Of a DNA stretch of 64,000 nt, positions 2 to 33,403 are shown piece by piece. The translations under genes were made by a program, and so were the position numbers. The stretch's first letter is position 1. Each line of letters opens with the position of its first letter. This stretch comes from an uncultured delta proteobacterium (lineage in GTDB: Bacteria; Desulfobacterota; Binatia; DP-6): assembly GCA_963815115.1 (NCBI GenBank), contig CAWFFN010000005.1:32001-96000 (forward strand). Direction: 5' to 3'. The notes beneath the pieces were generated by a model. It saw nothing but the letters and a program-made list of their open reading frames with translations. It was not told where the DNA came from and did not search any database.

Positions 2-3000
2 CTCGAATCCCGACCAGTGTCGCGGAATGCACGGATCGATCCGCCATGCGCCATGGTCGGGACGGATGCCGAGAAGCACCTCGATGCCGAAGCGATAGGC
101 CCATCCCGCCGCACCCGTGTACCACGTCCATCCGCCGCGGCCGGTCCAGGGCGCAGCGCCGTATACGTCGGCCGCCAGAACATAGGGTTCCACGCGATAC
201 CGCTCCACCGCCTCGCTCGTGCCGGCGTGGTGGACGGGAAGGAGCTTCTGGAACAGTGCGACCGTCTGGTCTGCCTCGCCGAGCTCGGCCAGTGCCCACA
301 GGAACCAGATGGCGGCATGCGTGTACTGTCCGCCGTTTTCCCGCACCCCGGGCGGGTAGGCCTTGATGTAGCCGGGGTCGGCGGTGCCGCGATCGAACGG
401 CGGGGCGAGGAGCAGGATGAGACCGTCATCCTCCCGGACGAGGTGCCGGCGCGCCGCGTCCATGGCCGCCGTCGCGCGCTGCGGGTCGGCTGCCGATGCG
501 AGCACGGCCCAGGCCTGCGAGAGCGAATCGATCTGGCACTCGGCGCTGGCAGCGGACCCGAGCGGGGTATCGTCGTCGTAGTACCCCCGGCGATACCATT
601 CGCCATCCCACGCCGATGCCTCGAGCGCCTGGCGCAACGCCTCGGCACGCTGACGCAGCTGGGCGGCGCGCCCAACCTCCTCCATGCGCTCGCAGAGGGG
701 AGCGAAGCGGGTGAGCGTCGCGTGCAGGAACCAGCCGAGCCAGACGCTCTCTCCACGTCCGCGATTCCCGACCCGATCCATCCCGTCGTTCCAGTCGCCG
801 CTGCCGAAAAGCGGCAGGCCGTGCGGCCCGGCCGTCTGTCCGCGCTCGATCGCCGCGACGCAGTGCCGGTACAAAGTTGCCCGCTGCTCGGTGAACGGAA
901 AGCGCTCGTAGCGCGCCGCCTGCTCGGGGCGGAGGATCTCACCCTTCACGAATCCGATTTCTTCACGGAGGATCGTCTCGTCGCCCGTGGCAGTCACATA
1001 GAAGGCGGTCACGAACGGCAACCAGAGCAGATCATCGGAGCAGCGCGTGCGGACGCCTGCCCCGGAATGCGGGTGCCACCAATGGAGCACGTCGCCCGCC
1101 TCGAACTGGTGCCGCGCGGCCTCGAGGATGTGGGACCGACACGCTGCGGGCGCCGCGTGAAGCAGCGCGGTCACGTCCTGCAGTTGATCGCGAAACCCGA
1201 AGGCGCCTCCGGGCTGATAGAAACCCGCTCGTGCCCAGAGTCGACTGACGAGCGTCTGATAGAGGAGCCAGCGGTTCAGCATCAGGTCGAGCGCCGGGTC
1301 GGGCGTGCGCACCTGGACCGTGCGGAGCAGCGACTCCCACTGCTCCGTGACGGCGACCCGGGCGGACTCGACGTTCGCGCGGTCCCGATACCTCGTGATC
1401 AGCGCGGCCGCCTCGTCGCGGGAGCGGGCCTGACCGAGCAGGAAATGCACGTCCGCGGTCGCGCCGGGCGCGAGATCGATGTGGACCTGGAGCGCCGCGC
1501 ACGGATCGAGGCCGGCGCGAACGGTGCTCGCGAGGCCGATGCGCTGGAGGGCCAGCGGGCGCGCGCGGCTCCCGTGCCGGCCCAGGAACTCGGCGCGGTC
1601 GGCCGTCAGTCCGTGGAGCCTTTCGCTCGCAGCTGCAAATGCGATGCGGTCGCTGAAGTCCGTGCTCCAGGGGTTCCGCGCGAGCAGCGCTTCCGATGCG
1701 GGGTCGAACTCCGGGACGACGAACGCCTGCGTCGTGTCGCGCGTCGCCCCGAGCACCCACTCGACGTAGTAGGTCGCGGTCACGCGGCGGGGGCGATCGA
1801 GACGATTCGTCACCTGGAGCTGGACGATCTTGACGGGATCGTTCAGCGGAACCCACATGCGCACGTGCTGATCGAGCCCCCGGCAGCGATGATGGAAGGT
1901 AGTGTAGCCCGCGCCGTGCCGGACCTGGTACGAGCCGGGGCCTGGTGCGGGCAGCGGCGTGGGGGACCAGACGGCGGCCGTCTCCTCGTCGCGGAGATAG
2001 AGAGTCTCCCCTGGCTCGTCCCGCACCGGGTCGTTCCGCCACGGCGTGAGCCGATTCTCGCCGCTGTGTTCACCCCACGTCGAGCCGCCGCCGGACTCGG
2101 ACATGATGAAGCCGAAGTGGGGGTTGGCGACGACGTTCACCCAGGGCGCAGGGGTGACGTCGGTCGGCCCGAGATGAACGACGTACTCGTGGCCATCTGG
2201 AGTGAACCCTCCGAAGCCGTTGTCGTACAGGAGGCCTTCGGGGCGGTCGAGCGGCTCGGGCACCGCCGTGTCGGGCAAGGTGGGAACGAGCGGCGGCAGG
2301 CGGGCAGGCTCCTCGGTCAGCTGCGCGAGGTCACCCGCGAGGTCGGTCGGGGACGCATCGAGGACCACGCGTGCCGCGGCGAGGAGCAACGTGCGGTCGG
2401 CCTCCGGGATGTGGGCGGTGCGGAGGAGGAAGACGCCCCCCGTCTGGTCGCGTGACACCTCGGCGCCCGCACGAGAGATGGCGCGCGCGATCCGGTCCTC
2501 CACGTCTTCTGCGTAGCCAGCCGCATGTTCGGCGAGAATGACGACGTCGACCGCCATGCCCCGTCGGCGCCAGAGGCGGTGCACCCGAAGCACGAAGCGC
2601 AGGAGCGGGGTGTCCTCCGTCCCGGCGATCCGCACGAGCAGGATCGGGAGGTCACCGGAGATGGCGTATCGCCAGAGGCCCGGCTGACCGAGACGGTTGC
2701 GACCGAGCACGTCGGAAGGGGCGCGCAGCGCGTGGTGGGGATAGATCATGAGCGAGAGCAGCTTCTGGGCAAGGCGGAGATCGCGCGGCGCGAGCCCGAG
2801 GTCGGCGGCCTCCACCTCGGCGTTTTGCCGGGCGAGCTCGAACGGCCACTCGAGGTTGTGGAGCGAGCGGTAGCGGCGCGCGAGGGCAACGGCGGCCTCG
2901 CGCGAGTCGGCGGCGAGGAAGATGTACGCGAGCGTCACCTGTCGATGTGGCGGCAGCTCGATCTCGCCCGACAGTGCCATGGCCGGATCGAGCGTGGCGC

Positions 3001-6000
3001 CCACGGTACCAGCCGGACGTCGGCCGGCTTCCGCGAACGCAGCCGGGCATGGGGCATCTCGGCGTCGCCCGAGAAATCGCTCGCGCGAGCTCTCGTACGC
3101 CGTGGGCGCGGGCCGCCGGCTGCCCAGCACCATCATGTGCAGGAGCCAGCCGGACGCACTGCCGGTGCCAGGACGGCGGTGGAACACCAGGGCGTGCAGC
3201 TCGGGCAGGTACTCACTCTCGACGAATAGCTTGCTGAAGGCCGGATGGCGGCGGTCCGCGGCCTCGTCGCCGAGGACGACCTCGGCATAGCTCGTGATCT
3301 CGAGCTGGCGTCGCAGGCCGCTCTCGTTCGCCAGCGTTACCTCGCGGATCTCGACGTCGTCGTCCGGGGCCACGCACAGGCGCTGCACCAGCGCAATCGT
3401 CCCGACCCGGTGGCGGATCTCCGCCATGTGCGCGTGGAAGAGCACCTCCGATCCGCCAGACGTCGACGACCAGACGTCGCCGGTCACGAGATCGCGCAGG
3501 TAGAGACGGAAGCCACGGTCATCCAGCGTCGTGTCGGACTCCCAGCGCGTGAGCGAGACGTTCTTCCATCGACTGACGCTGCCGGTCTCGGTCACCATTG
3601 CGTGGTAGCGGCCGTTCGACAGCACATGGGCCTGCGGGAAGGCAGCGTTCCGCGGGGCGGCCCAGGGCTCGATCCGCGTGCGCCGGCGCACCGCAACAGG
3701 AGGGCGCTCCAGCGTGAGCCGGGGGTGCTCGACCGGGGCGGTCTCGGTCGGGAGCTCGAAGAGGAGCGGCTCGGCGGTCTGTACGATGGGTTCTGCGTGG
3801 AAGCGGCGCACCATGGCGCTCGCGTTCAGCACGTTGTCGAGTGCGGCGAGGATCATGCCCTGGTGATGCGCCATGAAGGAGTGAACCATGGCCCGCTCTT
3901 CGCCGGGTGGCAGTCGTGATCGCGTGCAGTCGAGCGCCTCGTAGAGACCGTAGCGCCCCGCGAGACCGAGGGCTTCGAGGCGCCGCAGATTGGCGAGCGC
4001 AGCGCGCGGCACGTACGGCAGCGCGAGCACGCAGGCATAGGGGGCGATGACGAGGTCGTCTTCCAGGCCACGCTGGAAGCCGAGGTCCGGCACGCCAAAG
4101 GCCCGGTACTGGTAGTTCTGATGCGCGTCGAACTGGTGGTACCCTGCCTCCGAGATGCCCCACGGCACGCCACGACGCTTGCCGTAGGCAATTTGCACGT
4201 CGATCGCGGCAACGCATCCGCGACCGATGAGGCTGTTCTCGCCCTCCCGCATGAGGAGCGGCGGCATGAGGTACTCGAACATGGTCCCGCTCCACGAGAG
4301 CAGCGTCCGCAGTCCATCGAAGCGGCCGAACGGACGGCCGAGATGGAGCCAGTGCTCCTCGGGCACCTCGCCCTTCGCGATGGCGAGGAAGCTCGCGAGC
4401 CGCGCCTCCGAGGCGAGGAGGTCATAGTGGTGCTCGTCCGGGGAGCCCGCGGTGACGCTGTAGCCGATGTGCAAGAGGTGGCGGCGCTCGTCGTAGAGCC
4501 ACGCGAAGTCCATCTCGAGAAAGAGTTCCTCCGCCTGCCGGCCGAGCGCCGCGAGGGTGTCCAGGAGGCTCTGGCCGCCTGCGCGCGCCTGCAGGAGGGT
4601 CCGGGCGAGACCTGCCGTCCAGGTCCTCGCGTCGATCGCCGCGACGTCGCCGTCGGACAGTGTGTGCAGCACTTCGTCGGCGCGCGAGAGGCACGCGGCG
4701 ACCCGCTCGCAGGCCGAGGGCAGGTCGCAGAGCGCGGGCTCCCGGGGAAGAGCCGCCACGAAGGCGGCCCACGCCGTCGACAATGCCTCGGGCGCGCCGG
4801 GCCGGGCGAAGAGCGCCGGCGGGCTCGCCATGGAAATTTCCCACGGAAGAAGGAGGTCGAAGTCACGGTGCAGCGCGTGGATATGCTCGCGCACCTGTCC
4901 CGACCAGGCGCGAAGCTCCGACGTGAGCTCCGGATCCAGGTCCGTCACCTCGGGCGCGATCGCCGCGAGCAGTGCCGGTTCGAGTTCGGACGAGACCCGC
5001 TCGAGCAGCCGGACGACGCCCGCTCCCCACGCGCTCCGCCGCGGCTTCAGCGCCGTCGCCTCCCGCCGGAGCTCGGCGACGCACCCTCCGAGCGGCTCGA
5101 ATCGTGGGGCGCCGTGCCGCTGCGTCGCCAGCTCGATCACGCCGCCGAGGGCGGCCAGTGTGTCGACCAATCCGTCCCAACGCGCCGGCCCGACCACGGC
5201 GGCTGACGCCAGCTCGCGGCAGCCCTGCTTCACGGCGACGAGACACCCGGCGAGGTTCCCGCTGTCCACGGTCGAGACGTATCGTGGAGGGAGCGGCTCG
5301 AGATCGCGCGTATCGTACCAGTTGTAGAAGTGGCCGCGGTAGCGCTGCATCCGGGCGAGCGTGTCGAAGCTGTTCCTCAGCCGGAGCACGACGGAGAGCC
5401 GGCCCGTATAACCGAGGTCGTGCGCCGCGAGAATCGCGAGCTGGAGGAGCCCGATGTTCGTGGGAGACGTGCGGTGCGCGACCTCTCCGCGAGGCGTCTC
5501 CTGGAAGTGATCAGGGGGGAGCCACTGGTCCGCTGGGCCGACGAAGGTCTCGAAGAAGAGCCAGGTCCGCCGAGCGAGGAGGCGCAGGTGACGCACGTCC
5601 TCGTCCACGAGCGGCTCCGTCTTCCGTCGTCGCGGTTGGCTCACGCGCGCCGCAATCTCGGGGGATACGAGCCAGAGCAACACGAGCGGCAACGCCGCAG
5701 GAAGGGCGGTCGGGCGGAGGAGCACGAGAGCAACCGCCGCGGCGACGGCGAGGAGCGGAGCCGTCATCATCTCGTGCCAGAACCGGCGCGCCGAGGTGTC
5801 TCCTCCGACGGCGCGGGCGGTTGCGGCTGCCGAGGTCCACTGGAGGAGCCGACGGCGGCTCACGGCCAAGCGAAAGAGCGTGCGCGCGATGGCGTCGCTC
5901 AGGACGACCGATCGGTGTGCCAGCAACACTGTGTGCAGCACCCACAAAGCGATCGACCGGCGGGCGTGCTCCAGCACGCTCCGCAAACTGCGTGACGGGG

Positions 6001-8332
6001 CCCTGAAGATGCGGATCGAGAGCAGCCCCTCCGCCGTCTCGGTCAGTGCGGGCGCGGCGAGTGCCAAGAGTGCGACCGCGGTCCACACCACGGGGCTGCC
6101 CGGCAGGCCGAACCACGCGACGAGGAGGAACCCGAACAGCGTCGGAGCGAGCAGCGTGCGTCGGAGGTTGTCGGCGATCTTCCATCGCGCGATGAGCGAG
6201 AGAGGATTGGGACCGTGCCGGCCGTCTTCGAGCGGGACACGGTGGCCGAGCCACGGCAGGAGCTGCCAGTCCCCTCGCGCCCAGCGATGGAGCCGCCGTG
6301 CATGCGTGAGGTAGTCGGGCGGGTAGTCCTCCAGCAGGACGATATCGGTCACGAGTGCCGTGCGCCCGTGGATGCCTTCGAACAGGTCGTGGCTGAGCAG
6401 CGCGTTCTCGGGGACCCGGCCACGCAGGCTGCGCGCGAAGGCCACCGGATCGTAGATCCCCTTGCCGATGTAGATGCCTTCACCGAAGAGGTCCTCGTAT
6501 GCGTCCGAAACGGCTCGCGCGTAGAGGTCGACACCTCCGTCCCCGACGAAGACGTGAGCGAACCAGGAGGCCTCGGCGCCGAGGGGCGTCACGTCGACGC
6601 GCGGTTGCAGCAACGTGTAGCCGGCGACCACGTGGCCCGTTCGCGCGTCGAACTCGGCCCGATTGAGGGGATGCGCGAAGGTCGCCACGAGCCGACGAGC
6701 GGCCTCGCGCGGCAGCTCGGTGTCCGCGTCGAGCGTGATGACGAAGCGGATCGTGCGCAGGACGTCGGGATCGCCGACGCGAAGGGAGAAGTCGCTCTCC
6801 CCTTCGCCAGCCAGCAGGCGGTTGAACGCCGCGAGCTTGCCGCGCTTGCGCTCCCAGCCCATCCAGCAGCCTTCGGCAGCATTCCAGCGTCGCGGACGGT
6901 GCAGGAGATGGAACTGTGCCGGGTCGCCCTTGCCGTATCGTGCGTTCAGCGTGCGGATCCCCTCTGCCGCCCGCCGGAGCAGCTCGTCGTCCTCCGGGAC
7001 CGCTTGCACCGGGGCGTCGGCCAGATCCGTGAGGAGCGCGAGGTGAAGGTTCGCGTCCGCGTTGGCGAGCCAATTGAGCTCGATCCTCGAGAGCAGTGCG
7101 GAGACATCCTCCGCGTCCCCGAGCAAGGCCGGCATGACCACCATGGTTCGGCAGTCGGGCGGGATCCCCTTGCGGAAGTCCATCTTCGGCAGCACCCGCG
7201 GCGGGAGCAGTCGTGTCACGAGCGTGTTCACGAGCGTGACGGCGATCGTGACCGCGGGCACGATCGCGAGCAGCATGGCGGTCGTGGCCAGGGCCACGCC
7301 GGTGCCAAGCGCACGCAGCGCGGCGAACAGCGCGCTCTCATGGAGCATGGCAAGGACGGCGATCGGCCCGAGATAGGCGCTCGTCGGGTGGCGCCTCAGA
7401 AACCCCTGCCAGCGCGTCGGCCAGGGACGACGAGCGCCGAGCGCGCGGTCGAGGGTCTCGACGCCGGCATCGACGAGGTGGTACCCGACGTGCGCGGCGC
7501 GTCCGCACCGGTACTCCCGCGCCGCACGGACCGCCTCCTCGGCGACCTCCTCCTCGGTGCGTCCGCTCTGCGAGGCGAGGTCCTCGACGACCTTCCGGTA
7601 GCGGTCGCGGGTGTCGAACTCCATCCGGGCATATGTCCCTGCGGGATCCTGACGGAGGATCTGCTCCGTCTCGCTGACCTGCTCGAAGAAAGCCTTCCAG
7701 TCGGTGGCCTCGAGGGCACGGAGGCTCCGGATGCAGCTCGCGACGACCTGATCTACCGCGGTCTCGCGCGGAGAAGGGCGGTTGGCTGCGACCGCTGGTT
7801 CCGCTTCCGGCACCGGTGGGGCGATCGAGGAGGCAACCGCGCCAAGCTGCTCGAGCAGGGCCACGCGGAGCAGGATGGGCAACGCCCAGACCTCGGCGAT
7901 GGACAGTCTCCGAAGCGTCTGGAACTCGGCGAGGAGGCTCAGGGCGCTGTCCGCATCGATGTGGCCGCTGCCGATGGCTACGAACTCGCGGGCCAGCCCG
8001 AAGACCAACGGGTAGCCGGCCAGGTCGCCGGTGGTGAGTCGCCGGAGTCGGCGCTCGAACTCGTGCGGAAACTCCTCACGGATCACGCGGAAGGCCCGCT
8101 CGACGATGTAGGAGTTGTCGAGCAGCCACTCCGCGGCCGGACTCTCGACCGCTTCACCGCCGGCGTCGCGCAGGCGTCGGTATGCGCTCTCGATGGCGCG
8201 CCGGGCGCCGCGGACGAGGTCGATCACGTGGGGCGCCCCGCGCCCGGCCCTCGCAAGGGGCGCGCCGGCGAGGCGCTTCAGTGGTTCGCTGACATCGGCC
8301 TCGTCGGCGACCGCGCCCGGATGAGCCACCAC
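2..8332 (-). CDS. Cyclic beta-1,2-glucan synthase-like / GH94 glycoside phosphorylase multidomain protein (NdvB/ChvB-like), 3' end runs off the window
   Basis: Not in the ORF track because there is no stop in the window. GTG start at 8332 after GGAGA. Spot translation gives GWERKRGKL, FVITLDADT, RGGWTWYTGAAGW and RIDPCIPRHW. The long + strand ORFs at 17, 2525, 3245, 4121, 5330 and 6215 all share one register, as expected for antisense shadows of a single ORF of >2700 codons. Confidence 0.9.
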   Translation of the reverse strand, partial: MVAHPGAVADEADVSEPLKRLAGAPLARAGRGAPHVIDLVRGARRAIESAYRRLRDAGGEAVESPAAEWLLDNSYIVERAFRVIREEFPHEFERRLRRLTTGDLAGYPLVFGLAREFVAIGSGHIDADSALSLLAEFQTLRRLSIAEVWALPILLRVALLEQLGAVASSIAPPVPEAEPAVAANRPSPRETAVDQVVASCIRSLRALEATDWKAFFEQVSETEQILRQDPAGTYARMEFDTRDRYRKVVEDLASQSGRTEEEVAEEAVRAAREYRCGRAAHVGYHLVDAGVETLDRALGARRPWPTRWQGFLRRHPTSAYLGPIAVLAMLHESALFAALRALGTGVALATTAMLLAIVPAVTIAVTLVNTLVTRLLPPRVLPKMDFRKGIPPDCRTMVVMPALLGDAEDVSALLSRIELNWLANADANLHLALLTDLADAPVQAVPEDDELLRRAAEGIRTLNARYGKGDPAQFHLLHRPRRWNAAEGCWMGWERKRGKLAAFNRLLAGEGESDFSLRVGDPDVLRTIRFVITLDADTELPREAARRLVATFAHPLNRAEFDARTGHVVAGYTLLQPRVDVTPLGAEASWFAHVFVGDGGVDLYARAVSDAYEDLFGEGIYIGKGIYDPVAFARSLRGRVPENALLSHDLFEGIHGRTALVTDIVLLEDYPPDYLTHARRLHRWARGDWQLLPWLGHRVPLEDGRHGPNPLSLIARWKIADNLRRTLLAPTLFGFLLVAWFGLPGSPVVWTAVALLALAAPALTETAEGLLSIRIFRAPSRSLRSVLEHARRSIALWVLHTVLLAHRSVVLSDAIARTLFRLAVSRRRLLQWTSAAATARAVGGDTSARRFWHEMMTAPLLAVAAAVALVLLRPTALPAALPLVLLWLVSPEIAARVSQPRRRKTEPLVDEDVRHLRLLARRTWLFFETFVGPADQWLPPDHFQETPRGEVAHRTSPTNIGLLQLAILAAHDLGYTGRLSVVLRLRNSFDTLARMQRYRGHFYNWYDTRDLEPLPPRYVSTVDSGNLAGCLVAVKQGCRELASAAVVGPARWDGLVDTLAALGGVIELATQRHGAPRFEPLGGCVAELRREATALKPRRSAWGAGVVRLLERVSSELEPALLAAIAPEVTDLDPELTSELRAWSGQVREHIHALHRDFDLLLPWEISMASPPALFARPGAPEALSTAWAAFVAALPREPALCDLPSACERVAACLSRADEVLHTLSDGDVAAIDARTWTAGLARTLLQARAGGQSLLDTLAALGRQAEELFLEMDFAWLYDERRHLLHIGYSVTAGSPDEHHYDLLASEARLASFLAIAKGEVPEEHWLHLGRPFGRFDGLRTLLSWSGTMFEYLMPPLLMREGENSLIGRGCVAAIDVQIAYGKRRGVPWGISEAGYHQFDAHQNYQYRAFGVPDLGFQRGLEDDLVIAPYACVLALPYVPRAALANLRRLEALGLAGRYGLYEALDCTRSRLPPGEERAMVHSFMAHHQGMILAALDNVLNASAMVRRFHAEPIVQTAEPLLFELPTETAPVEHPRLTLERPPVAVRRRTRIEPWAAPRNAAFPQAHVLSNGRYHAMVTETGSVSRWKNVSLTRWESDTTLDDRGFRLYLRDLVTGDVWSSTSGGSEVLFHAHMAEIRHRVGTIALVQRLCVAPDDDVEIREVTLANESGLRRQLEITSYAEVVLGDEAADRRHPAFSKLFVESEYLPELHALVFHRRPGTGSASGWLLHMMVLGSRRPAPTAYESSRERFLGRRRDAPCPAAFAEAGRRPAGTVGATLDPAMALSGEIELPPHRQVTLAYIFLAADSREAAVALARRYRSLHNLEWPFELARQNAEVEAADLGLAPRDLRLAQKLLSLMIYPHHALRAPSDVLGRNRLGQPGLWRYAISGDLPILLVRIAGTEDTPLLRFVLRVHRLWRRRGMAVDVVILAEHAAGYAEDVEDRIARAISRAGAEVSRDQTGGVFLLRTAHIPEADRTLLLAAARVVLDASPTDLAGDLAQLTEEPARLPPLVPTLPDTAVPEPLDRPEGLLYDNGFGGFTPDGHEYVVHLGPTDVTPAPWVNVVANPHFGFIMSESGGGSTWGEHSGENRLTPWRNDPVRDEPGETLYLRDEETAAVWSPTPLPAPGPGSYQVRHGAGYTTFHHRCRGLDQHVRMWVPLNDPVKIVQLQVTNRLDRPRRVTATYYVEWVLGATRDTTQAFVVPEFDPASEALLARNPWSTDFSDRIAFAAASERLHGLTADRAEFLGRHGSRARPLALQRIGLASTVRAGLDPCAALQVHIDLAPGATADVHFLLGQARSRDEAAALITRYRDRANVESARVAVTEQWESLLRTVQVRTPDPALDLMLNRWLLYQTLVSRLWARAGFYQPGGAFGFRDQLQDVTALLHAAPAACRSHILEAARHQFEAGDVLHWWHPHSGAGVRTRCSDDLLWLPFVTAFYVTATGDETILREEIGFVKGEILRPEQAARYERFPFTEQRATLYRHCVAAIERGQTAGPHGLPLFGSGDWNDGMDRVGNRGRGESVWLGWFLHATLTRFAPLCERMEEVGRAAQLRQRAEALRQALEASAWDGEWYRRGYYDDDTPLGSAASAECQIDSLSQAWAVLASAADPQRATAAMDAARRHLVREDDGLILLLAPPFDRGTADPGYIKAYPPGVRENGGQYTHAAIWFLWALAELGEADQTVALFQKLLPVHHAGTSEAVERYRVEPYVLAADVYGAAPWTGRGGWTWYTGAAGWAYRFGIEVLLGIRPDHGAWRIDPCIPRHWSGFE

Positions 8333-8344
8333 TCTCCGCCCTGC

Positions 8345-9442
8345 TCAGTGTCCAGGGTGGCTCCGCGCGGCCTCCTGTGCGCGTGTCGACTCGTGCACTG
8401 CACCGGCGAGATCCTGCAGGACGATGATCGGCCTGCTGCTCCGCTGAATGAGGTGCGCCACCGTGCTCCCGTACCGGTCGTTCGCGTTCCCGGTGGCCCC
8501 GTGTGCGCAGGCGACGATCAGATCGACGTCGTCGCGATCGGCAAGCTCGAGGATGGTATGAGGCTTGCGCGTCGAGACGACCGCGTTCGTCTGTACCCGG
8601 ATGCCCTGTGCCGAGAGGTCGTTCGAGAGGTTCTGCAGATAGTGCTCGCTCTCGAGGCGATTCCGTTCCGTGAGCCGGCGCGCGAGGGCGACATCCTCGG
8701 ACGACGGCGGCATGCGCCGGGGGAGCTCGGGCTCGGGCACGACGTGGGCGAGGACCAGGTCGGCGTCGTGCGCGCGAGCGAGCGCGACGGCGAAGGGCAG
8801 GATGCACTCGGCGCGCGGAGAGCAGTCGAGCGGCACGAGGATCCTGCCGAGGCGAAGCTGGGGTCGGCGTGCGGCCTCGGCGGCGTAGGCCGGCACGATG
8901 AGAATCGAGCTGTGCGTCCGTGCGACCACCTTCTGCACCGTGCTGCTGAGCACCCAGCTCGTGAGACCTCCTTCGCCATGGCTCGAGAGCACGATCAGGT
9001 CGACGTGGTGCTCCTGCGCGAAATGAATGATCTGCTCGGCCGGCCGGCCCTCTCGCACCGCGACGTCGGAGGTGAGGCCGGCGGCTACGAGCTGGTGGTT
9101 GAACCGTGCGAGCTGGCTGTGCGCCTCGGCGCGCGCGAGCTCCCACTCCACGGGATCGACGTGCCCGCTCGGGGCCGTGAGCACTCGGAGGAGCGTGATT
9201 CGTGCCGAGAGCACTTTGCCCACCGCGGCGGCGAACGGCAGGGCACACGCCGCCACCGCCGAGCCATCCAGCGGCACCAGGATGTGGCGAATCGTAAGAC
9301 TGGGATACCCGGCGGCGTCGCCTGCGGGCCCGGCGAAGGCGGACCGGCGAGTCGCTTGCGAGTCCCCCGCGGTCCGCTCAGCGAGTCGGGCGACCTGCAA
9401 GAGCGCGTCGGCCAAGGGAGAAGTCGTGTGTTCGAACGCCAT
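8345..9442 (-). CDS. Universal stress protein, tandem USP domains
   Basis: HILVPLDGS...VDLIVLSSHG...SSTVQKVV, plus a second ILVPLDCS...DLIVACAHG domain. Confidence 0.9.
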   Translation of the reverse strand: MAFEHTTSPLADALLQVARLAERTAGDSQATRRSAFAGPAGDAAGYPSLTIRHILVPLDGSAVAACALPFAAAVGKVLSARITLLRVLTAPSGHVDPVEWELARAEAHSQLARFNHQLVAAGLTSDVAVREGRPAEQIIHFAQEHHVDLIVLSSHGEGGLTSWVLSSTVQKVVARTHSSILIVPAYAAEAARRPQLRLGRILVPLDCSPRAECILPFAVALARAHDADLVLAHVVPEPELPRRMPPSSEDVALARRLTERNRLESEHYLQNLSNDLSAQGIRVQTNAVVSTRKPHTILELADRDDVDLIVACAHGATGNANDRYGSTVAHLIQRSSRPIIVLQDLAGAVHESTRAQEAARSHPGH

Positions 9443-9530
9443 GCGCAAGGCGACCTGAGTGCTCAAGGCACTCTACATGCCGAGACGCTCCGCCGCTTCA
9501 CCGAGAGGTCCGCAGCCCACGAGTGAGGAT

Positions 9531-10202
9531 TCATCTCCAAGGATCGATCTCGAGATGGTCCTCCACCGACCGAACACCCGGCGCGAAGCGTGCCGCCGCC
9601 AGCGTCGCTCGCTTCTCCGCCCATGAGCGGACGTGGCCAGTGAGCTTTACGGTGCCAGTGGGCGTCACCTCTACCCCGATGCGCTTGGCTTCGCGATCTG
9701 CTCGTCGCTCGAGGGCATCTTCGATGGCTTCGCGGACCCGCTCCGGCAGCACCGGCGTTGTGGAGAGGACCGTCATCGTGTCGAACACGCCGCGCACGCC
9801 GACCAGGTTCTGCACCGCACGCTCGGCATCCTCGCGTTGGGTCCAGCTGTCGACGGTACCCTCGAGCGTCACCCAGCCGTTCGACACGGTCGACTGGATG
9901 CGCTCGTGCGGAACCAGCGCATCCCACTCGAGCGCCCGTCGCACCGCCTGTGCGATCTCGGTATCCGTCCGCACGAGATCTCCGGGGAGCTTCACCTTGA
10001 TGTCGTTCGCGACATCGAGCACGCCTGTTACGCAGTGCGCTGCCTCCTGAGCGGCCACTCGCTTGGCCCAGCTGCTCACCGTGCCGGTCAGGGTGACGAC
10101 ACCGCGATCGACCTCGACCCCGACCTCCGTCTCTTCGACCCGCGGATCCCAGCTCAGTTCGCGGAGCACGTCTTGCTGAATCTCTGAGTCGCTCTTCGCC
10201 AT
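9531..10202 (-). CDS. BON-domain (OsmY-like) protein with three BON repeats
   Basis: Repeated SDSEI..V...L...GVVTLTGTV.SW pattern; GGAGG RBS before ATG 10202. Confidence 0.9.
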   Translation of the reverse strand: MAKSDSEIQQDVLRELSWDPRVEETEVGVEVDRGVVTLTGTVSSWAKRVAAQEAAHCVTGVLDVANDIKVKLPGDLVRTDTEIAQAVRRALEWDALVPHERIQSTVSNGWVTLEGTVDSWTQREDAERAVQNLVGVRGVFDTMTVLSTTPVLPERVREAIEDALERRADREAKRIGVEVTPTGTVKLTGHVRSWAEKRATLAAARFAPGVRSVEDHLEIDPWR

Positions 10203-10231
10203 GATCAACCTCCCATGTCTCGCTCATTGGA

Positions 10232-10247
10232 TGCAACTGCGATGCCA
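10232..10247 (-). promoter_or_regulatory. Sigma-54 -24/-12 promoter for the BON-USP-GH94 unit
   Basis: TGGCAT-CGCAG-TTGCA, 30 bp upstream of the BON ATG. Confidence 0.75.
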
Positions 10248-10337
10248 GTTGCGGTATCAGCGGAAACCCGAGAGGATGGCCGCCGAGATTCCGAGTGACA
10301 GAAGAGAGGGTGCGCTCGGTGTTCGCAAGCTCGAGGT

Positions 10338-12194
10338 TCACTGGGACGGCAAGATGACGCTGAAGACCGTCCCGGTCTCGGGGCGGCTGCTCAGAGCGAT
10401 CTCCCCGCCCATGGACTCCGTCGCGAGCTTGCAGAACGGCAAGCCGAGCCCCGTGTCGCAGCTCGACTCGCTGTCGCCTGACCGTCGGATCGAAGCGAAC
10501 TTTTCGAAGACGCGCTGGTGGTCATCCTCGGCGATGCCCCGGCCGTGATCGATCACCCGCAACCTCACCCGGGCCGTGGCCGGGTCGAGCGTCGCTTCCA
10601 CTCGGACTTCATCGCTGCCGCTGTGCCGGAGCGCGTTCACCACCAGGTTGACCAGGACGCGCTTCAAGAGCGCGCGGTCGGCGACGATGCACGGCAGCTC
10701 GGGGCCGACCGCTGCCACGAGCCGGCGGCCCGCCTGCTCTGCAACGGGACCGTACTCCACCACGACCTCGTCGACGATCTCGGCGAGGGCGATCGGGCCC
10801 CGGCTGACCGGCATCTTCCCCTCCTCGACCTCTCTGATCTCGAGCAGGTTCTGGATGAGGCGCATCATCTCGCGGCACGTGCGCTCGATCTGGAGCAGCG
10901 AATTGCGCTGTGTTGTTGGAAGATCCTGGCCCTTGCGCAGCGCGAGCTGGACCAGCATGGTGATGCTGTTCACCGGGTCCTTGAGGTCGTGGACGATCAT
11001 ATTCGAGAGGTCGTCCTTCAGACGCTCGGCCGCCGCGCGGGCGCGCAGGCCCGTCTCGGTCGTCGCACGGGCCTCGCGCTCAACCGCGTAGAGACGGTCA
11101 CGTCTGATCGCCAGGGCGAGGCAATCCGCGACCAGCTGCAGCAGACGGGACTCGTCCTCCGTGAAGCGCCGCGGCTCACGGGTGCCGACATGGAGAACCC
11201 CGAGGGCACGTCCATCGTTCAGGATTGGGACACCGAAGAGTGAGCGAACCCCGGTCTCGAGCAGGACGGGATCGAGAACGTCGGCGGGGGCGACGGCTTC
11301 GAGCATGAGCGGCCGACACTCATCGGCGATTCGCCCGGCGAAGCCCTTCCCGACGGGAATGGCGACCTCGTGCGCCCGGGTTTCATCGAGCCCAACGGCG
11401 GCATGCGTGCGAAGGCTGCCGGCGCGCTCGTCGAGAAGAAGGATCACGGCCGTGTCCACGGCGAGCATCCTGTGAATCCGCCCGAGCAGCTCCGATAGCT
11501 CCTCGTCGAGGGAGAGGTGAGCGAGGCCCACGTCTAGGGCAGGGAGGGCCGCCCGTACGGTTCTCGCCTCACGATTGCGAATTTGGATGACGGCGGCCAG
11601 GCGCTGGGCCGGTGAGATGCCGATCAGCCGTTTCGCATCCGGCAGGCTGACTCTCCCTTCACGGACGAGATCGGCGGCCTCCGGGGCCTCCGCCACGAGT
11701 TTCTTCGCTGTGCTGACATAGCGGCCGTTGACGCGGAGTAAGGATCCAGCCTGGTCTGCTGCTTTGCCGACAGGGTAGGGAATTCTTTCCCTACCCTGTC
11801 GGCCTCGACCCGCAATCTCGCCTCCCCGGCGCATTCGCATCTTGGCCTCTTCGGCAAGCACCTTCTCGAGCTCGACCGCGAGGACCGCGCGCTGGCCCTT
11901 CGTCAGATCGCGGCGCTTGAGGTTCATCGACACCACATAGGCCGTCGGCGAGCCGCTGTTCGCATACTCCGTGTAGGTGGGCTTCACCTTCGCGAGCTTG
12001 CAGGCGATCCAGCGGTTGCGCCCATCGAGGATCGCGCCATCGTGGCGGACGATCGGTGACCGCAAGCCGTGCGCCGCGATGTCGGCAGCGAGGGCGCAGA
12101 GCTCGTCGGGTGCCAGGAGCGGGAAGAGCGCCGTGGCTGCATGGACCGCAGGCAGCTCGGCGGCGAAGCCGGCCGCTCGAGTCTTGTCGTTCAT
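10338..12194 (-). CDS. ParB-like N-terminal domain fused to GAF, HisKA and HATPase_c histidine kinase
   Basis: N-term LFPLL..LAADIAAHGLRSPI..ILDGRNR..AC..YVVSMNLKRRDL; GAF (GKGFAGRIA..LGVLHVG..RRFTEDE); H-box IVHDLKDP; N-box NLVVNALRH; G-boxes DHGRGI and GLGL. Confidence 0.85.
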   Translation of the reverse strand: MNDKTRAAGFAAELPAVHAATALFPLLAPDELCALAADIAAHGLRSPIVRHDGAILDGRNRWIACKLAKVKPTYTEYANSGSPTAYVVSMNLKRRDLTKGQRAVLAVELEKVLAEEAKMRMRRGGEIAGRGRQGRERIPYPVGKAADQAGSLLRVNGRYVSTAKKLVAEAPEAADLVREGRVSLPDAKRLIGISPAQRLAAVIQIRNREARTVRAALPALDVGLAHLSLDEELSELLGRIHRMLAVDTAVILLLDERAGSLRTHAAVGLDETRAHEVAIPVGKGFAGRIADECRPLMLEAVAPADVLDPVLLETGVRSLFGVPILNDGRALGVLHVGTREPRRFTEDESRLLQLVADCLALAIRRDRLYAVEREARATTETGLRARAAAERLKDDLSNMIVHDLKDPVNSITMLVQLALRKGQDLPTTQRNSLLQIERTCREMMRLIQNLLEIREVEEGKMPVSRGPIALAEIVDEVVVEYGPVAEQAGRRLVAAVGPELPCIVADRALLKRVLVNLVVNALRHSGSDEVRVEATLDPATARVRLRVIDHGRGIAEDDHQRVFEKFASIRRSGDSESSCDTGLGLPFCKLATESMGGEIALSSRPETGTVFSVILPSQ

Positions 12195-12388
12195 GGTCGG
12201 ACCCTCGCTTTCCGCCCTTGCCGCCGGGAGGTGCGGCGAGGCATGCGATTCGGGGCCTCGCAGGGATAGAACAACGCGTCGGCGCGCGTCTATTGCCCCA
12301 ATGGGTTATACGTGGGCGGCGTCCTGCGCTCGCCCCCGTGGACAAGTGCCAACCGGTGCTCTTGGCTCGAGCTCGCTCCTTTGCGTGT

Positions 12389-13006
12389 TCACCGGGACGG
12401 GCGCGTGGGACCCGTCAGCAAGATCCGCACGAGATCGGCCTGGCACTCCGCACCTAGCTTCGCGAGGACACGCTTCATATGCGCGCGCGCCGTGTGGCGA
12501 CTGGTTCGGCGCCGCTTCGCGATCTCATCGATCCGGCCGCCCTGGAGGCTGAGGAGTGCCACCTGCGTCTCTGCCTCGGTCAGGCCGTATGCGCGAAGCA
12601 CCTCCCGCCATGTCTGCATAGGGTGTCCGGGATCCGTGATGAGGAGAAGCGCTGTGGGCGATTCGCTCGCCCCGACGACATCCCAGGGGCGCAGCGGTGC
12701 CACGAACAGATGGAAGGCGGGGCAACCCGACGGGCGGGAGACACGCAAGGCACGGCCAGTGACCTCCGCGGCCCTCTCCGCGCGCCGGCAAACCTCGTGA
12801 ACGACGTCGTGCAACTTGGCTGATTCGGCCGGCTTGGCGGCGACGACGCGGCCCTGCTGGAGCGACAAGCCGTCTCGGGCATCAAGCGTGTCTCTCGCGA
12901 GCGTGTTCTGCGCGAGGACCTTGCCGCTGGCGTCGAGTATGAGCACGCCCATCGGCAGCCGGTGATCGAGCAGACCGAGTTGGATGTCGCGACTTCGGCC
13001 CGCCAT
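12389..13006 (-). CDS. LuxR/CsgD-type HTH regulator with PAS-like N-terminus
   Basis: YGLTEAETQVAL..GGRIDEIAKRR..SRHTARAHMKRVLAKLG..QADLV. Confidence 0.85.
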   Translation of the reverse strand: MAGRSRDIQLGLLDHRLPMGVLILDASGKVLAQNTLARDTLDARDGLSLQQGRVVAAKPAESAKLHDVVHEVCRRAERAAEVTGRALRVSRPSGCPAFHLFVAPLRPWDVVGASESPTALLLITDPGHPMQTWREVLRAYGLTEAETQVALLSLQGGRIDEIAKRRRTSRHTARAHMKRVLAKLGAECQADLVRILLTGPTRPSR

Positions 13007-13097
13007 CGTAGACCGCTCCAGACCAAGGAGCTTGATAGGACGACCCGATGTTTAGTCCGCTTTGATGGCATCGTCCAGCGAGGGACCGCGGCTATGT

Positions 13098-13804
13098 GGC
13101 GACTATCTCCGTGCGTTCGACGCCGCCATGCGGCACTACCACATCACCGTGCACGACCGTGAACTCGCGTGCGCGCCCTTCCGCTCGGCCGAGGGCCAGG
13201 CCTACTTCGCCGCGATGAACGCCCGCCGCGAACACGGCCTTCGCGAATCGCCAGGTCATCACGCACCGCGTGCGCGAGGCGATGGGCGCAGTGTTCGGGA
13301 AGGAGCCGCGAGCTGGGGCTCTCGGTGATCTACGATGTCTGCCACAATACGGCCAAGCTCGAGCAGCATCGGGTCGACGGCGAGGTGCTCGACCTGGTGG
13401 TGCACCGCAAGGGAGCGACGCGCGCCTTCGGTCCGGGCATGCCCGACGTGCCGACCATCTACCGCGAAGTCGGCCAGCCGGTGATCATCGGCGGCTCGAT
13501 GGAGACGGGGTCCGCCCTCCTGATCGGGACCGCGCACGCGATGGAGGAGACGTTCGGCTCGACGGCGCACGGCGCCGGGCGGACGATGTCGCGCCACCAG
13601 GCGAAGCGCCGGGTGTGGGGCGCGAAGCTCCTCGAGGACATGGAGGCACGTGGCATCGTGGTGCGCGCGGCATCGAAGTCCGGCGTCGCCGAGGAAGCGG
13701 GCTTTGCCTACAAGGACCTCGCGGCGGTAGTCGACATGCTGGACCGCATCGGCATCTCGCGCAAGGTGGTGTCCTTGACGCCGATCGGGAACATCAAGGG
13801 ATAG
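13098..13804 (+). pseudogene. rtcB: RtcB RNA ligase, 3' half only, with two frameshifts
   Basis: DRELACAPF, AANTAFANRQ, YDVCHNTAK, HRKGATRAF, GGSMETGS, STAHGAGR, AEEAGFAYKD and PIGNIKG are spread over three frames; the N-terminal half is absent. Confidence 0.9.
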
Positions 13805-13805
13805 G

Positions 13806-13940
13806 ATGAAGAACTTCGAGGTCGCGCGGCTCTTCGACCTCATGGCCGACGTGCTCGAACTGCGCGGCGCGAACGTGTTTCGGATCCGCGCCTACCGTCG
13901 GGCAGCGCAGAACGTCGAGTCGCTCACGGAGGACGTGGAG
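13806..13940 (+). pseudogene. polX: DNA polymerase X (PolX) N-terminal fragment
   Basis: MKNFEVARLFDLMADVLELRGANVFRIRAYRRAAQNVESL, ending after about 45 codons. Confidence 0.85.
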
Positions 13941-13963
13941 GGGCGCGCCGGACCACGGCGCGG

Positions 13964-15810: not shown

Positions 15811-16293
15811 TCAGGCGGCGACGGAGAGCTCGCGGTGCTCGCGCGGCATGCAGATCGCCCCGAGTGTCTCGGCGACCTCGTCGCTGCCGACCTCGGGCTT
15901 CCCCGACGCCCCCCGCTCCCGAGCGACCTCCCGCGCGATGTCGTTGAGCGACAGGAGACCGATGACGTGGTTCGCCGGGTCGACCACCGGCAGCCGCCGC
16001 ACTTGCGCGGCGCGCATGATGCTCTCCGCCTCCGCGACCGTGTCCGTCGGGCGGCACGAGCGCACCTCGCGCGCCATGGCGCTCCCCACGCACAGGTGAC
16101 TCAGTAGCCCGCCCTGGGTGTAGGTCGCCATGCAGACATCGCGATCGGTGATCATCCCCACGGCTCGTCCGTCGTCGTCTACGACGGGGACGCAGCCGCA
16201 GTCGTTCTCCCACATCAGCTGCGCGGCGTGGTTGAGGGTGTCGCTCGACAGGCAGGTCTTGACGGTCCGACTCATCACTTGCTCGACTTTCAT
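15811..16293 (-). CDS. CBS domain protein
   Basis: AAQLMWENDCGCVPVVD..GMITDRD..QVRRLPVVD..GLLSLND. Confidence 0.9.
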   Translation of the reverse strand: MKVEQVMSRTVKTCLSSDTLNHAAQLMWENDCGCVPVVDDDGRAVGMITDRDVCMATYTQGGLLSHLCVGSAMAREVRSCRPTDTVAEAESIMRAAQVRRLPVVDPANHVIGLLSLNDIAREVARERGASGKPEVGSDEVAETLGAICMPREHRELSVAA

Positions 16294-21048: not shown

Positions 21049-21064
21049 TTCAATCGCCGTGCCA
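21049..21064 (-). promoter_or_regulatory. Degenerate sigma-54-like promoter
   Basis: TGGCAC-GGCGA-TTGAA (conserved -12 C is lost). Confidence 0.35.
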
Positions 21065-22019: not shown

Positions 22020-22035
22020 TGGCAATGATCTTGCA
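22020..22035 (+). promoter_or_regulatory. Sigma-54 promoter upstream of the M50 protease
   Basis: TGGCAA-TGATC-TTGCA. Confidence 0.7.
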
Positions 22036-32247: not shown

Positions 32248-33403
32248 CTTCGTAATGCCGATTCTCGGCTCCGACATGGAGGCCGGCACGCTCGTCGCCT
32301 GGCGCAAGCAGCCGGGCGACCGGCTCGAGCGCGGCGACATCATCGCCGAGGTCGAGACGGAGAAGGGCTTGATCGAGGTCGAGGTGTTCACGAGCGGCAC
32401 GCTCGATCGTCTGGTCGTCCAGCCGGGCGCCAAAGTCCCGGTGGGCACCGTCCTGGCGACGATTCGGGAGGACGCCGGCGCGGCGGCGGCCGCCCCGCCG
32501 GGCCCCGCCGCGCCGTCCGCGCCGCTGCCGCCGCAGCCTGCCGTCCCGCCCGCCGCCGTACCGCCGCCAGCCGGTGCGGCGCCCGCGGCTCGGGCACGCC
32601 TCCGCATTTCGCCCGCGGCACGCGCCCGCGCGGCCGAGCTCGGCATCGACCCCGCCACCGTCGCTGGCACCGGCCCGGACGGCGCGATCACGCTGCAGGA
32701 CGTCGACCGAGCAGGCCAGCCGGCGGCCCCCGCCGACCGTCACGCCCGCATGCGCCAGGCGATCGCTGCAGCGATGGTGCGCTCGAAGCGGGAGATCCCG
32801 CACTTCTACCTTGAGTCCACGATCGACCTCGAGCCCGCGCTCGGTTGGTTGGAGGCGGAAAACGCGCGGCGGCCCGTCACCGAACGGTTCCTGGCCGGGG
32901 TCCTCTTCTTGAAGGCAGTGGCCCTCGCGCTGCGCGAGGTGCCCGAGCTGAACGCTCGCTGGGAAGACGGCCGCGCGGCGCCGAATGCGGCCGTCCACCT
33001 GGGCACGGCGACCGCGCTCCGCGGTGGAGGGTTGGTGGCACCGGCGCTGCACGACGCCGATCGCCGCAGCCTCGCCGAGCTCATGCGCGCCTTCCGCGAC
33101 GTCGTGCAGCGCGCCCGCGCCGGCACGCTGCGCAGCTCGGAGCTGTCCGACCCGACGATCACCGTGACGAGCCTGGGCGAGCAGGGGGCCGAGTCGCTCT
33201 TCCCCGTGATCTACCCGCCGCAGGTGGCGATCGTCGGGTTCGGCCGGATCGTGCGGCGGCCGTGGGTGGTCGACGACGCGCTCGTCGCGCGGCGGGTGGT
33301 CGGTGCGACACTTGCCGCGGACCACCGCGTGACCGACGGCCATCGCGCAGGACGTTTCCTCATCGCGCTCGAGCAACTGCTGCGGGAGCCCGAACGCCTG
33401 TGA
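32240..33403 (+). CDS. pdhC: Dihydrolipoamide acyltransferase E2
   Basis: Lipoyl EVETEKG, Pro/Ala linker, E3-binding ISPAAR..GTGPDG, catalytic DHRVTDG. Confidence 0.93.

Follow-up and report, generated by a model that had tools for sequence, protein, structure and literature searches.

A ParB-type N-terminal module joined to a GAF histidine kinase in an uncultured delta proteobacterium

The stretch of DNA described here comprises 64,000 nucleotides (nt) of contig CAWFFN010000005.1 (positions 32,001 to 96,000) from an uncultured delta proteobacterium and is called the window below. On its reverse strand lies a gene for a protein of 618 amino acids, P0002, in which a module of the ParB type runs in frame into a GAF domain and a complete histidine kinase. 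The original prediction, made from the nucleotide letters, took this protein to be either a nucleotide-sensing or DNA-tethered soluble kinase or a recent accidental chimera. The fusion is very probably real, of single origin, and maintained by selection, and the ParB fold and P-motifs that it has kept are suggestive of the first of these two possibilities. All positions refer to the window and all residue numbers to P0002.

Architecture of the Fusion Protein

The gene and its parts are as follows.

10338 to 12194, reverse strand: whole gene of the ParB-N/HTH (helix-turn-helix)-GAF-HisKA-HATPase_c kinase, 618 amino acids, ATG start, stop codon at 10338-10340
11859 to 12146, reverse strand: ParB N-terminal core (CTPase fold), residues 17-112, with box II-like DGRNR at 57-61 and box III-like SxNLKRRDL at 89-97
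11541 to 11858, reverse strand: long helix and predicted ParB-type HTH/helical DNA-binding domain, residues 113-218, from profile alignment, Foldseek, and a predicted local distance difference test score (pLDDT) mostly above 90
11517 to 11540, reverse strand: fusion junction or flexible hinge, residues 219-226, pLDDT below 50 at 222-226 in the full-length model
11100 to 11516, reverse strand: GAF domain, residues 227-365, Pfam GAF_2 E = 6.3e-17 and GAF E = 1.8e-15
10821 to 11099, reverse strand: signalling helix and dimerisation and histidine phosphotransfer (DHp, HisKA) domain, residues 366-458, phospho-acceptor H402, Pfam HisKA E = 1.5e-8
10344 to 10679, reverse strand: HATPase_c catalytic domain, residues 506-617, Pfam E = 3.5e-24

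The Pfam spans of GAF (227-363), HisKA (393-458), and HATPase_c (506-617) each exceed the gathering score, which bears out the in-frame run into a complete kinase that had been predicted. The fusion protein shares its start methionine with the seven closest homologs covering the N-terminus, and the G+C content at third codon positions stays between 0.71 and 0.90 over the entire reading frame, junction included, in 100-codon windows. As had also been stated, no transmembrane-like segment is present in the kinase (KD-19 hydropathy maximum 1.52). Judged by its HisKA domain and the residues of its H, N, G1, and G2 boxes, the protein is a soluble class-I (HisKA) histidine kinase. The full-length structural model reached a pLDDT of 90.3 and a predicted template modelling score (pTM) of 0.52, at which the placement of the domains is unreliable. 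It contains one continuous helix from residue 346 to residue 421, leading from the end of the GAF domain into helix 1 of the DHp domain.

The N-Terminal Module Belongs to the ParB Fold

Common domain profiles hardly recognise the N-terminal module. Pfam PF02195 (ParB_N) gave no match for residues 1-220 even at E<=10, and a six-frame PF02195 scan of the genome at E<=0.01 did not retrieve the fusion gene. The sole Pfam match of residues 1-220 was HTH_ParB with E = 0.19, and TIGR00180 matched with E = 0.005, far below its cut-off. The PHROGs profiles yielded phrog_21315 with E = 1.2e-16 and the ParB-like phrog_4715 with E = 4.5e-7. When 1.84 billion representatives were searched exhaustively with phmmer, homologs of the module were present in 22,503 clusters at E<=1e-3, with 11,009 of these reaching E<=1e-10. 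In a word-based homolog search, which was limited to proteins of 339-1082 amino acids, seven non-self rows among the matches listed had kinase architecture. The remaining matches listed were 33-57% identical, mostly around 40-50%, and carried the ParB N-terminal part fused to MT-A70 (PF05063), N6_N4_Mtase/UPF0020 (PF01555/PF01170), Dam (PF05869), or gp37 (PF07505). The matches to ParB-methyltransferase fusions, with E as low as about 1e-41, cover residues 17-217, so that the module derives from this class over its full length as far as the junction. The assignment to the ParB class of mobile elements normally fused to DNA methyltransferases, made in the original prediction, is thereby supported.

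Across 135 aligned members of the family, G58, R61, C65, R94, and R95 are invariant and H18, P25, D57, R59, N60, and N91 nearly so. An AlphaFold2 model of the module calculated from the family alignment had a pLDDT of 93.7 and a pTM of 0.85. When this model was compared with the PDB by Foldseek, all 24 matches listed at E<=1e-3 were ParB-family chains. The best were Spo0J of T. thermophilus (1vz0, E = 1.3e-6, 194 columns), M. xanthus ParB with CTPgS or CDP, Noc, C. crescentus ParB, and KorB; the top ParB chains had a probability of 1.00 with E from 1.3e-6 to 1e-3 and covered about 190-200 columns of the N-terminal domain (NTD) plus HTH. The single N-domain sequence searched against the PDB gave a chance match only (E = 1.6). 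The profile-to-PDB alignment places DGRNR (G58-R59-N60-R61) opposite the box II sequence GERR, and SxNLxRRxL opposite the box III sequence ENLQRxDL with N91 and R94 on the phosphate-contacting Asn and Arg of box III. Residues from about 137 to 220 lie opposite the HTH domain of Spo0J (134-219), so that the DGRNR and NLKRRDL (91-97) motifs and the HTH-like segment described previously are all accounted for. From the Foldseek and profile alignments it follows that the module is, as far as prediction can tell, a ParB NTD with CTPase fold plus HTH, which lacks the ParB C-terminal dimerisation domain. The expected match to ParB profiles thus held for PHROGs and for the ParB chains found by Foldseek and failed for Pfam PF02195.

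A homodimer prediction for two copies of the module (alignment A2) scored 0.00 against a mark of 0.42 and is evidence neither way. Models of defence systems from PADLOC matched neither the module nor the BON protein encoded next to the fusion gene, and the LuxR-type neighbour gave a marginal HTH match (E = 0.0044). Contig C9 of the same genome carries two canonical ParB_N genes, separated by 17 kb, at 15870-16139 on the reverse strand and 33110-33385 on the forward strand, in frames of 331 and 299 amino acids.

A Narrow Clade of Conserved Fusion Proteins

Look-ups of sequence clusters brought the full-length members that join ParB module and kinase to 11 (P0002, P0279, P0003, P0004, P0273, P0274, P0276, P0006, P0008, P0007, and P0277). 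They stem from independent assemblies of NCBI, ENA, JGI, and Logan, and their contigs measure 3.5-257 kb. In a FastTree phylogeny of the kinase cores all 11 fall into one clade with a support of 0.998. The junction itself is bridged by a 267-nt contig of run X1, which spans 11390-11656 with one mismatch; X1 may be the source sample. Nine of the 11 members contain the GAF domain. P0007 and P0277 do not (Pfam finds HisKA and HATPase_c only), and as these two keep ParB module and kinase, the link between ParB and kinase is the constant feature of the family.

Among the 11 members the mean pairwise identity is 89.9% for the ParB core (17-112), 83.3% for the HTH part (113-218), and 82.2% for the kinase core (393-617), the ParB core being the most conserved segment of the protein. 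The residues H18, P25, D57, G58, R59, N60, R61, C65, N91, R94, and R95 of the ParB module are invariant in all 11, as are H402, N520, D549, G551, and G584 of the kinase. The clade of 11 members, the strong conservation of the ParB core, and the ParB-kinase link that persists without GAF speak against the recent accidental chimera which the original prediction had left as an option.

The region between HTH and GAF varies. P0006 and P0008 have 70-115 additional residues there, at the hinge. A helical extension of about 45 amino acids (...ADLHALLD...W.EW.VFA.EL...) follows the ParB HTH in P0006, P0007, and P0277 and is missing in P0002; it had no significant match among about 270 non-fusion proteins, the donor family included (best E = 0.13). 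One further protein, P0005 (412 amino acids, on a 257-kb ENA contig), stops shortly after GAF with a divergent tail, and its cluster mate P0276 is full length with 623 amino acids. P0005 may be a frameshifted or truncated copy.

In the ESM Atlas the nearest clusters were plain GAF-histidine kinase families, and no ParB-histidine kinase cluster was present among the clusters of at least 50 members. Gemmatimonadota was the phylum most often represented in these nearest clusters, which gives no more than a hint at the taxon. Scans for homologous DNA found one distant locus in metagenomes (L021, 34% identity) and one locus of the methyltransferase type in genome contigs (L014, 39% identity).

Origin of the Two Halves

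The N-terminal module was not found at E<=1e-5 in 24 other species genomes of the bacterial family, four of which belong to the same genus. Among 400 other genomes sampled from the phylum, three had matches at E<=1e-8 (31-42% identity, frames of 93-466 amino acids). Close relatives of the kinase half, on the other hand, are spread over the whole family. Among the 13 nearest kinase cores that were examined (loci L003-L013, L016, and L022), 11 belong to protoglobin-HisKA-HATPase_c proteins, one to a histidine kinase with three PAS domains, and one, from genome G010, to a kinase with two PAS domains and GAF. It is one family-wide kinase core cassette which occurs with interchangeable sensors, namely protoglobin, PASx3, PASx2-GAF, and the ParB-type module. 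The closest GAF-containing kinase is the PASx2-GAF kinase of G010, which is 57% identical over residues 175-616.

With midpoint rooting of the FastTree phylogeny, the two PAS-type kinases form the sister group of the fusion clade, within which the two GAF-less members make up the basal branch. A stretch in P0006, P0008, and P0007 (...VVEDITE(H/R)(R/K)RA...) resembles by eye the end of the PAS domain and the following linker in the G010 kinase. The simplest history would be a single ancestral event, in which a PAS-GAF kinase exchanged its PAS sensors for the N-terminal module of a mobile-element ParB-methyltransferase gene, followed by loss of a PAS remnant in the P0002 lineage and of GAF in another. 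At the DNA level the same-genus genomes showed scattered matches only and no conserved block.

Neighbouring Genes

The fusion gene is surrounded by the following genes and remnants.

2 to 8332, reverse strand: giant open reading frame of more than 2777 amino acids running off the start of the window, with GT2, glucoamylase-like, and GH94 supersandwich and catalytic domains
8345 to 9466, reverse strand: tandem universal stress protein (Usp) gene downstream of BON, Pfam Usp E = 1.2e-41 in two stretches
9531 to 10208, reverse strand: gene with three BON domains (OsmY-like) directly downstream of the kinase, Pfam BON E = 1e-47
12389 to 13006, reverse strand: upstream LuxR/GerE-type regulator of 205 amino acids without receiver domain, Pfam GerE at 142-195
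13100 to 13804, forward strand: 5'-truncated rtcB remnant (3' 705 nt) beside the LuxR gene, matching Pfam RtcB profile positions 262-426 only

The upstream gene had been described as a receiver-less PAS-LuxR gene. The GerE/LuxR HTH and the missing receiver were confirmed; the PAS label was not confirmed by Pfam and has leads from the Atlas only. This LuxR-type protein has only 16 homologs, all 74-94% identical, and six of them lie on contigs with exactly the nucleotide sizes of contigs that carry fusion kinases (91224, 26311, 6709, 6271, 257095, and 3327). In addition, a contig of run X2 (11754-12473, about 93% identical) links the fusion kinase to the LuxR gene. The equal contig sizes and the X2 contig suggest that the two genes form a co-inherited pair. 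The BON family is widespread, yet the closest homologs of the BON protein are found on contigs of 6709 and 257095 nt, again equal in size to fusion contigs.

The giant open reading frame with GT2 and GH94 domains resembles a cyclic beta-1,2-glucan synthase and is located directly downstream of Usp in the same direction. The window region carries HSP20, CBS, ACT, DJ-1/PfpI, and GYD genes besides Usp. On the other side, the rtcB remnant has 86% DNA identity to an intact rtcB of 486 amino acids in G010. Since only the 3' part of rtcB is left and the homology begins abruptly at 13100, the block with the fusion gene abuts a rearrangement breakpoint. G010 holds about 600 nt which are absent from the window between the matches at window positions 13804 and 13797-13942.

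Promoter Elements and a Candidate Response Regulator

Candidate promoters of the sigma54 type were located with a pattern made from the -24/-12 consensus of such promoters.

10233 to 10247, reverse strand: sigma54-type -24/-12 element C-TGGCAT-N5-TTGC-A, about 25 nt before the BON start, match to the strict pattern
21050 to 21064, reverse strand: further sigma54-type element directly before the adenosine-specific kinase gene
22020 to 22034, forward strand: further sigma54-type element directly before the M50-CBS peptidase gene

The element before BON sits in the 129-nt gap between the stop codon of the fusion kinase and the BON start and is the only match to the strict pattern in the window, with 40 in the genome. 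When one mismatch was permitted, 12 matches occurred in the window versus 3.2 expected, a number reached in none of 100 shuffles. BON, the adenosine-specific kinase, and the M50-CBS peptidase, before which elements of this kind stand, are stress-type genes. A scan of 8000-13400 for sigma70 promoters gave no site, and the four terminator-like sites in this region (2.0 expected) were not convincing.

Of the 60 HATPase_c matches in the genome, none but that of the fusion gene falls within the window, which makes it the only sensor kinase of the island as had been claimed. The claim that no receiver-domain gene is nearby proved correct as well: none of the 67 receiver domains of the genome is in the window, and the nearest on the contig is 28 kb distant. 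The fusion kinase is an orphan without a nearby regulator. The original prediction also suggested that it could feed a sigma54 activator of the island; the window contains none of the 40 PF00158 (sigma54-activator domain) matches of the genome.

A candidate partner is suggested by the relatives of the kinase core. The genome has a protoglobin kinase paralog of its own in a cluster of Usp, an activator with receiver (REC) and sigma54-activator domains, kinase, and CBS genes, the activator being encoded as follows.

L022 (G000:C12:31000-43000), 5884 to 7164, forward strand: REC-sigma54 activator of 427 amino acids beside the protoglobin kinase

In 10 of 12 relative loci a homolog of this activator, 76-87% identical, is encoded beside the kinase; the other two are PAS-type loci, and there the flanks covered only about 1.5 kb. 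The DHp domain of the fusion protein is 67-79% identical to those of the protoglobin kinases and 61% to those of the PAS types. At His+7, +8, +11, +12, and +15, which we take to be the specificity-determining positions of the DHp domain, the fusion clade carries N-(S/G)-M-L-L and the protoglobin kinase of the same genome S-G-M-L-L. Because the kinase core is usually paired with this activator in the family, the orphan fusion kinase would be expected to feed the REC-sigma54 activator of its sister protoglobin kinases. With this pairing and the adjacent sigma54-type promoter, the earlier suggestion, wrong as it was written, is plausibly right in spirit. The 427-amino-acid activator has no Pfam HTH at E<=1e-3 and ends in a tail of about 28 residues after the AAA lid; to judge by this sequence it may be without a DNA-binding domain.

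A Possible Mode of Action and Alternatives

The chances are judged to be a little better than even that the ParB module is a working input or tether of the kinase which binds a nucleoside triphosphate (NTP), DNA, or both, with a sigma54 activator as output. The dimeric GAF-DHp-catalytic part would then take the place of the C-terminal dimerisation domain of ParB, and an NTD-HTH unit tethered to a dimer held by DHp would reproduce the ParB layout of NTD, HTH, and dimeriser. As the hinge at 222-226 has low confidence and one helix ranges over 346-421, the GAF domain appears to be wired to the kinase in the classical way and the ParB module to be tethered. With such a flexible hinge the module would alter the proximity of the N-termini or the state of the dimer or place the kinase on the nucleoid, and would not act as a rigid helical lever. 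Three modes can be envisaged: NTP-dependent engagement of the N-domains, binding of DNA, and simple placement on the nucleoid. GAF, rigidly coupled to DHp, could serve as a second input where it is present, and the co-inherited LuxR-type neighbour would be part of the module. The most likely output would lead over the REC-sigma54 activator to sigma54 promoters such as the one before the BON-Usp stress operon.

A more specific version, which is a long shot, would make the protein a nucleotide-gated clamp in the style of ParB: the N-domains would close around DNA once NTP is bound, or DNA itself would set off the closure, and this would determine the state of autophosphorylation, the phosphate going to a sigma54 activator devoid of a DNA-binding domain with the kinase supplying the promoter targeting. 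According to Kaljevic et al. (bioRxiv 10.1101/2025.10.10.680097), ParB-fold fusions bind CTP, ATP, or GTP, mutation of the GxxR arginine to alanine abolishes binding, and the nucleotide specificity of the ParB-CTPase fold is not predictable from sequence.

Several observations weigh against a working ParB input with sigma54 output. No regulator gene flanks the fusion locus and the proposed one is on another contig, with the DHp domain only 69% identical to that of the protoglobin kinase of the same genome. A search of the three flanking intergenic regions for palindromic parS-like sites was negative, apart from a weak 14-nt palindrome inside the rtcB remnant. The profile-to-PDB alignment puts Ser89 at the position of the box III Glu, and the region of box I, the C-motif in contact with the base, precedes the start of this alignment, the conserved H18 and P25 falling there. 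In PMC13229309 the box III Glu of M. xanthus ParB, E93, is given as a residue of CTP hydrolysis; with Ser89 in its place and box I unaligned, a hydrolysing switch is doubtful. The same source describes a phage ParB-like protein that activates its cognate dioxygenase and in which mutations of the NTP pocket had little effect, so that conserved pocket residues are no proof of NTP dependence. The flexible hinge offers no obvious route for allosteric signalling. The fusion gene was met in one of 25 family genomes and one of 401 phylum genomes searched, which points to a narrow and perhaps young clade. Selection was gauged solely by relative protein conservation, which stood in place of the ratio of nonsynonymous to synonymous substitutions (dN/dS).

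The phage dioxygenase activator, working as it does with a mutated pocket, would fit a different role of the ParB module, that of a protein-protein adaptor which docks the kinase to the LuxR-type neighbour or another partner in a non-canonical signalling unit. The equally narrow distribution of the LuxR gene, the matching contig sizes, and the X2 contig that physically joins both genes are also in line with it. The residues kept invariant, however, are the ParB P-motifs and the HTH motif, which also occur in thousands of methyltransferase fusions lacking any LuxR partner, and the LuxR neighbour is without a receiver domain to take up the phosphoryl group. An adaptor is regarded as unlikely. 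A functionless passenger of a recent accidental fusion, leaving an ordinary GAF-regulated kinase, would agree with the narrow distribution, with the adjoining rearrangement breakpoint, and with a hinge that is flexible between ParB and GAF versus the rigid coupling of GAF to DHp. Such a passenger would hardly have the most conserved sequence of the protein with every family-signature residue invariant, nor would it have been retained in the two members which dropped GAF or have lasted through a divergence of the kinase core to 73% identity; the passenger is considered very unlikely.

Conversely, the kinase half could be the accessory one, in a ParB-like DNA clamp or silencer where GAF, DHp, and the catalytic domain provide a scaffold for dimerisation and ATP binding and no phosphotransfer takes place. 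This is given slightly less credence still. The architecture mirrors the NTD-HTH-dimeriser order of ParB with the dimeric DHp at the C-terminal position, and no cognate regulator gene is nearby, but none of the 11 members deviates at the phospho-acceptor histidine or at the residues of the N, G1, and G2 boxes, the DHp domain remains close to kinases with an adjacent regulator, and two canonical ParB genes are provided by the genome elsewhere. An artefact, in which mis-assembly or a sequencing error at the junction merged two separate genes, is practically negligible as an explanation. The genome apparently stems from metagenomic or draft data in 12 contigs and the junction was checked with short contigs only; at least 10 other full-length fusion proteins nevertheless occur in separate ENA, JGI, and Logan assemblies, the coding signal is continuous over the junction, and the X1 contig crosses it.

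Relation to Known Systems and Significance

The nearest known proteins are the phage and prophage fusions of ParB-N with MT-A70, N6_N4_Mtase, or Dam methyltransferases, which were surveyed by Kaljevic et al. (bioRxiv 10.1101/2025.10.10.680097). These share with the fusion protein 40-50% identity over residues 17-217, the same HTH motif, and the signature H18, P25, DGRNR, C65, and NLxRR. Unlike them it has no methyltransferase domain, GAF-HisKA-HATPase_c standing in its place, and its gene is chromosomal among stress genes with no recognisable prophage. It is a derivative of the ParB-methyltransferase class and not a member. With the canonical CTP-dependent DNA clamps ParB/Spo0J, Noc, and KorB it has in common the NTD plus HTH fold, the box II GxxR, and the box III Asn and Arg; it differs from them by an identity of only 15-20%, by falling below the PF02195 threshold, and by Ser for the box III Glu. 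In contrast to ParB of ParABS systems it lacks a C-terminal dimerisation domain, its gene lies between LuxR and BON genes and not beside parA, and no parS-like palindrome is nearby. The protoglobin and PAS HisKA kinases of the same bacterial family resemble it in the kinase core (55-70% identical), in DHp (61-79%), and in their neighbourhood in the tree, but lack the ParB-type sensor and are usually paired with a REC-sigma54 regulator, whereas it has no adjacent regulator.

Other fusions of the NTP-binding ParB-CTPase fold to effectors have been listed, with Sigma70, acetyltransferase, SAM-methyltransferase, and DndB-like partners (Kaljevic et al., 10.1101/2025.10.10.680097), and the present protein resembles them in that a ParB fold, there NTP-binding, precedes an effector domain of unrelated kind. 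In the main text of the survey, to which the count is confined, the words HATPase, HisKA, GAF, sensor, and two-component do not occur. According to the same text its proteins were selected by PF02195 at the gathering threshold, and as the fusion gene falls below this threshold the survey would probably have missed it. No description of a ParB-fold histidine kinase was found in the full-text literature searched, in keeping with the earlier remark that the architecture was not recognised as characterised. A ParB-type input for a histidine kinase is thus undescribed in the literature searched and so far restricted to one narrow clade, which is uncultured and limits generalisation for now.

Histidine kinases take many inputs, and the ParB-CTPase fold is a portable NTP-binding switch found on many effectors; the fusion protein is a natural junction of both. 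It is also part of a clean natural sensor swap on one kinase cassette, with protoglobin, PAS, PAS-GAF, ParB-GAF, and ParB alone, which is useful for learning how kinases accept inputs. For work on ParB, autophosphorylation would provide a built-in enzymatic read-out of N-domain engagement. Should the module work as a clamp, the NTP pool or the condition of the DNA would be read by the histidine kinase at the nucleoid itself. Should the ParB module gate the kinase, it would represent the first CTPase-fold or DNA-clamp switch to serve as input to a two-component system, and the nucleotide pool or DNA state would be linked to phosphorelay signalling.

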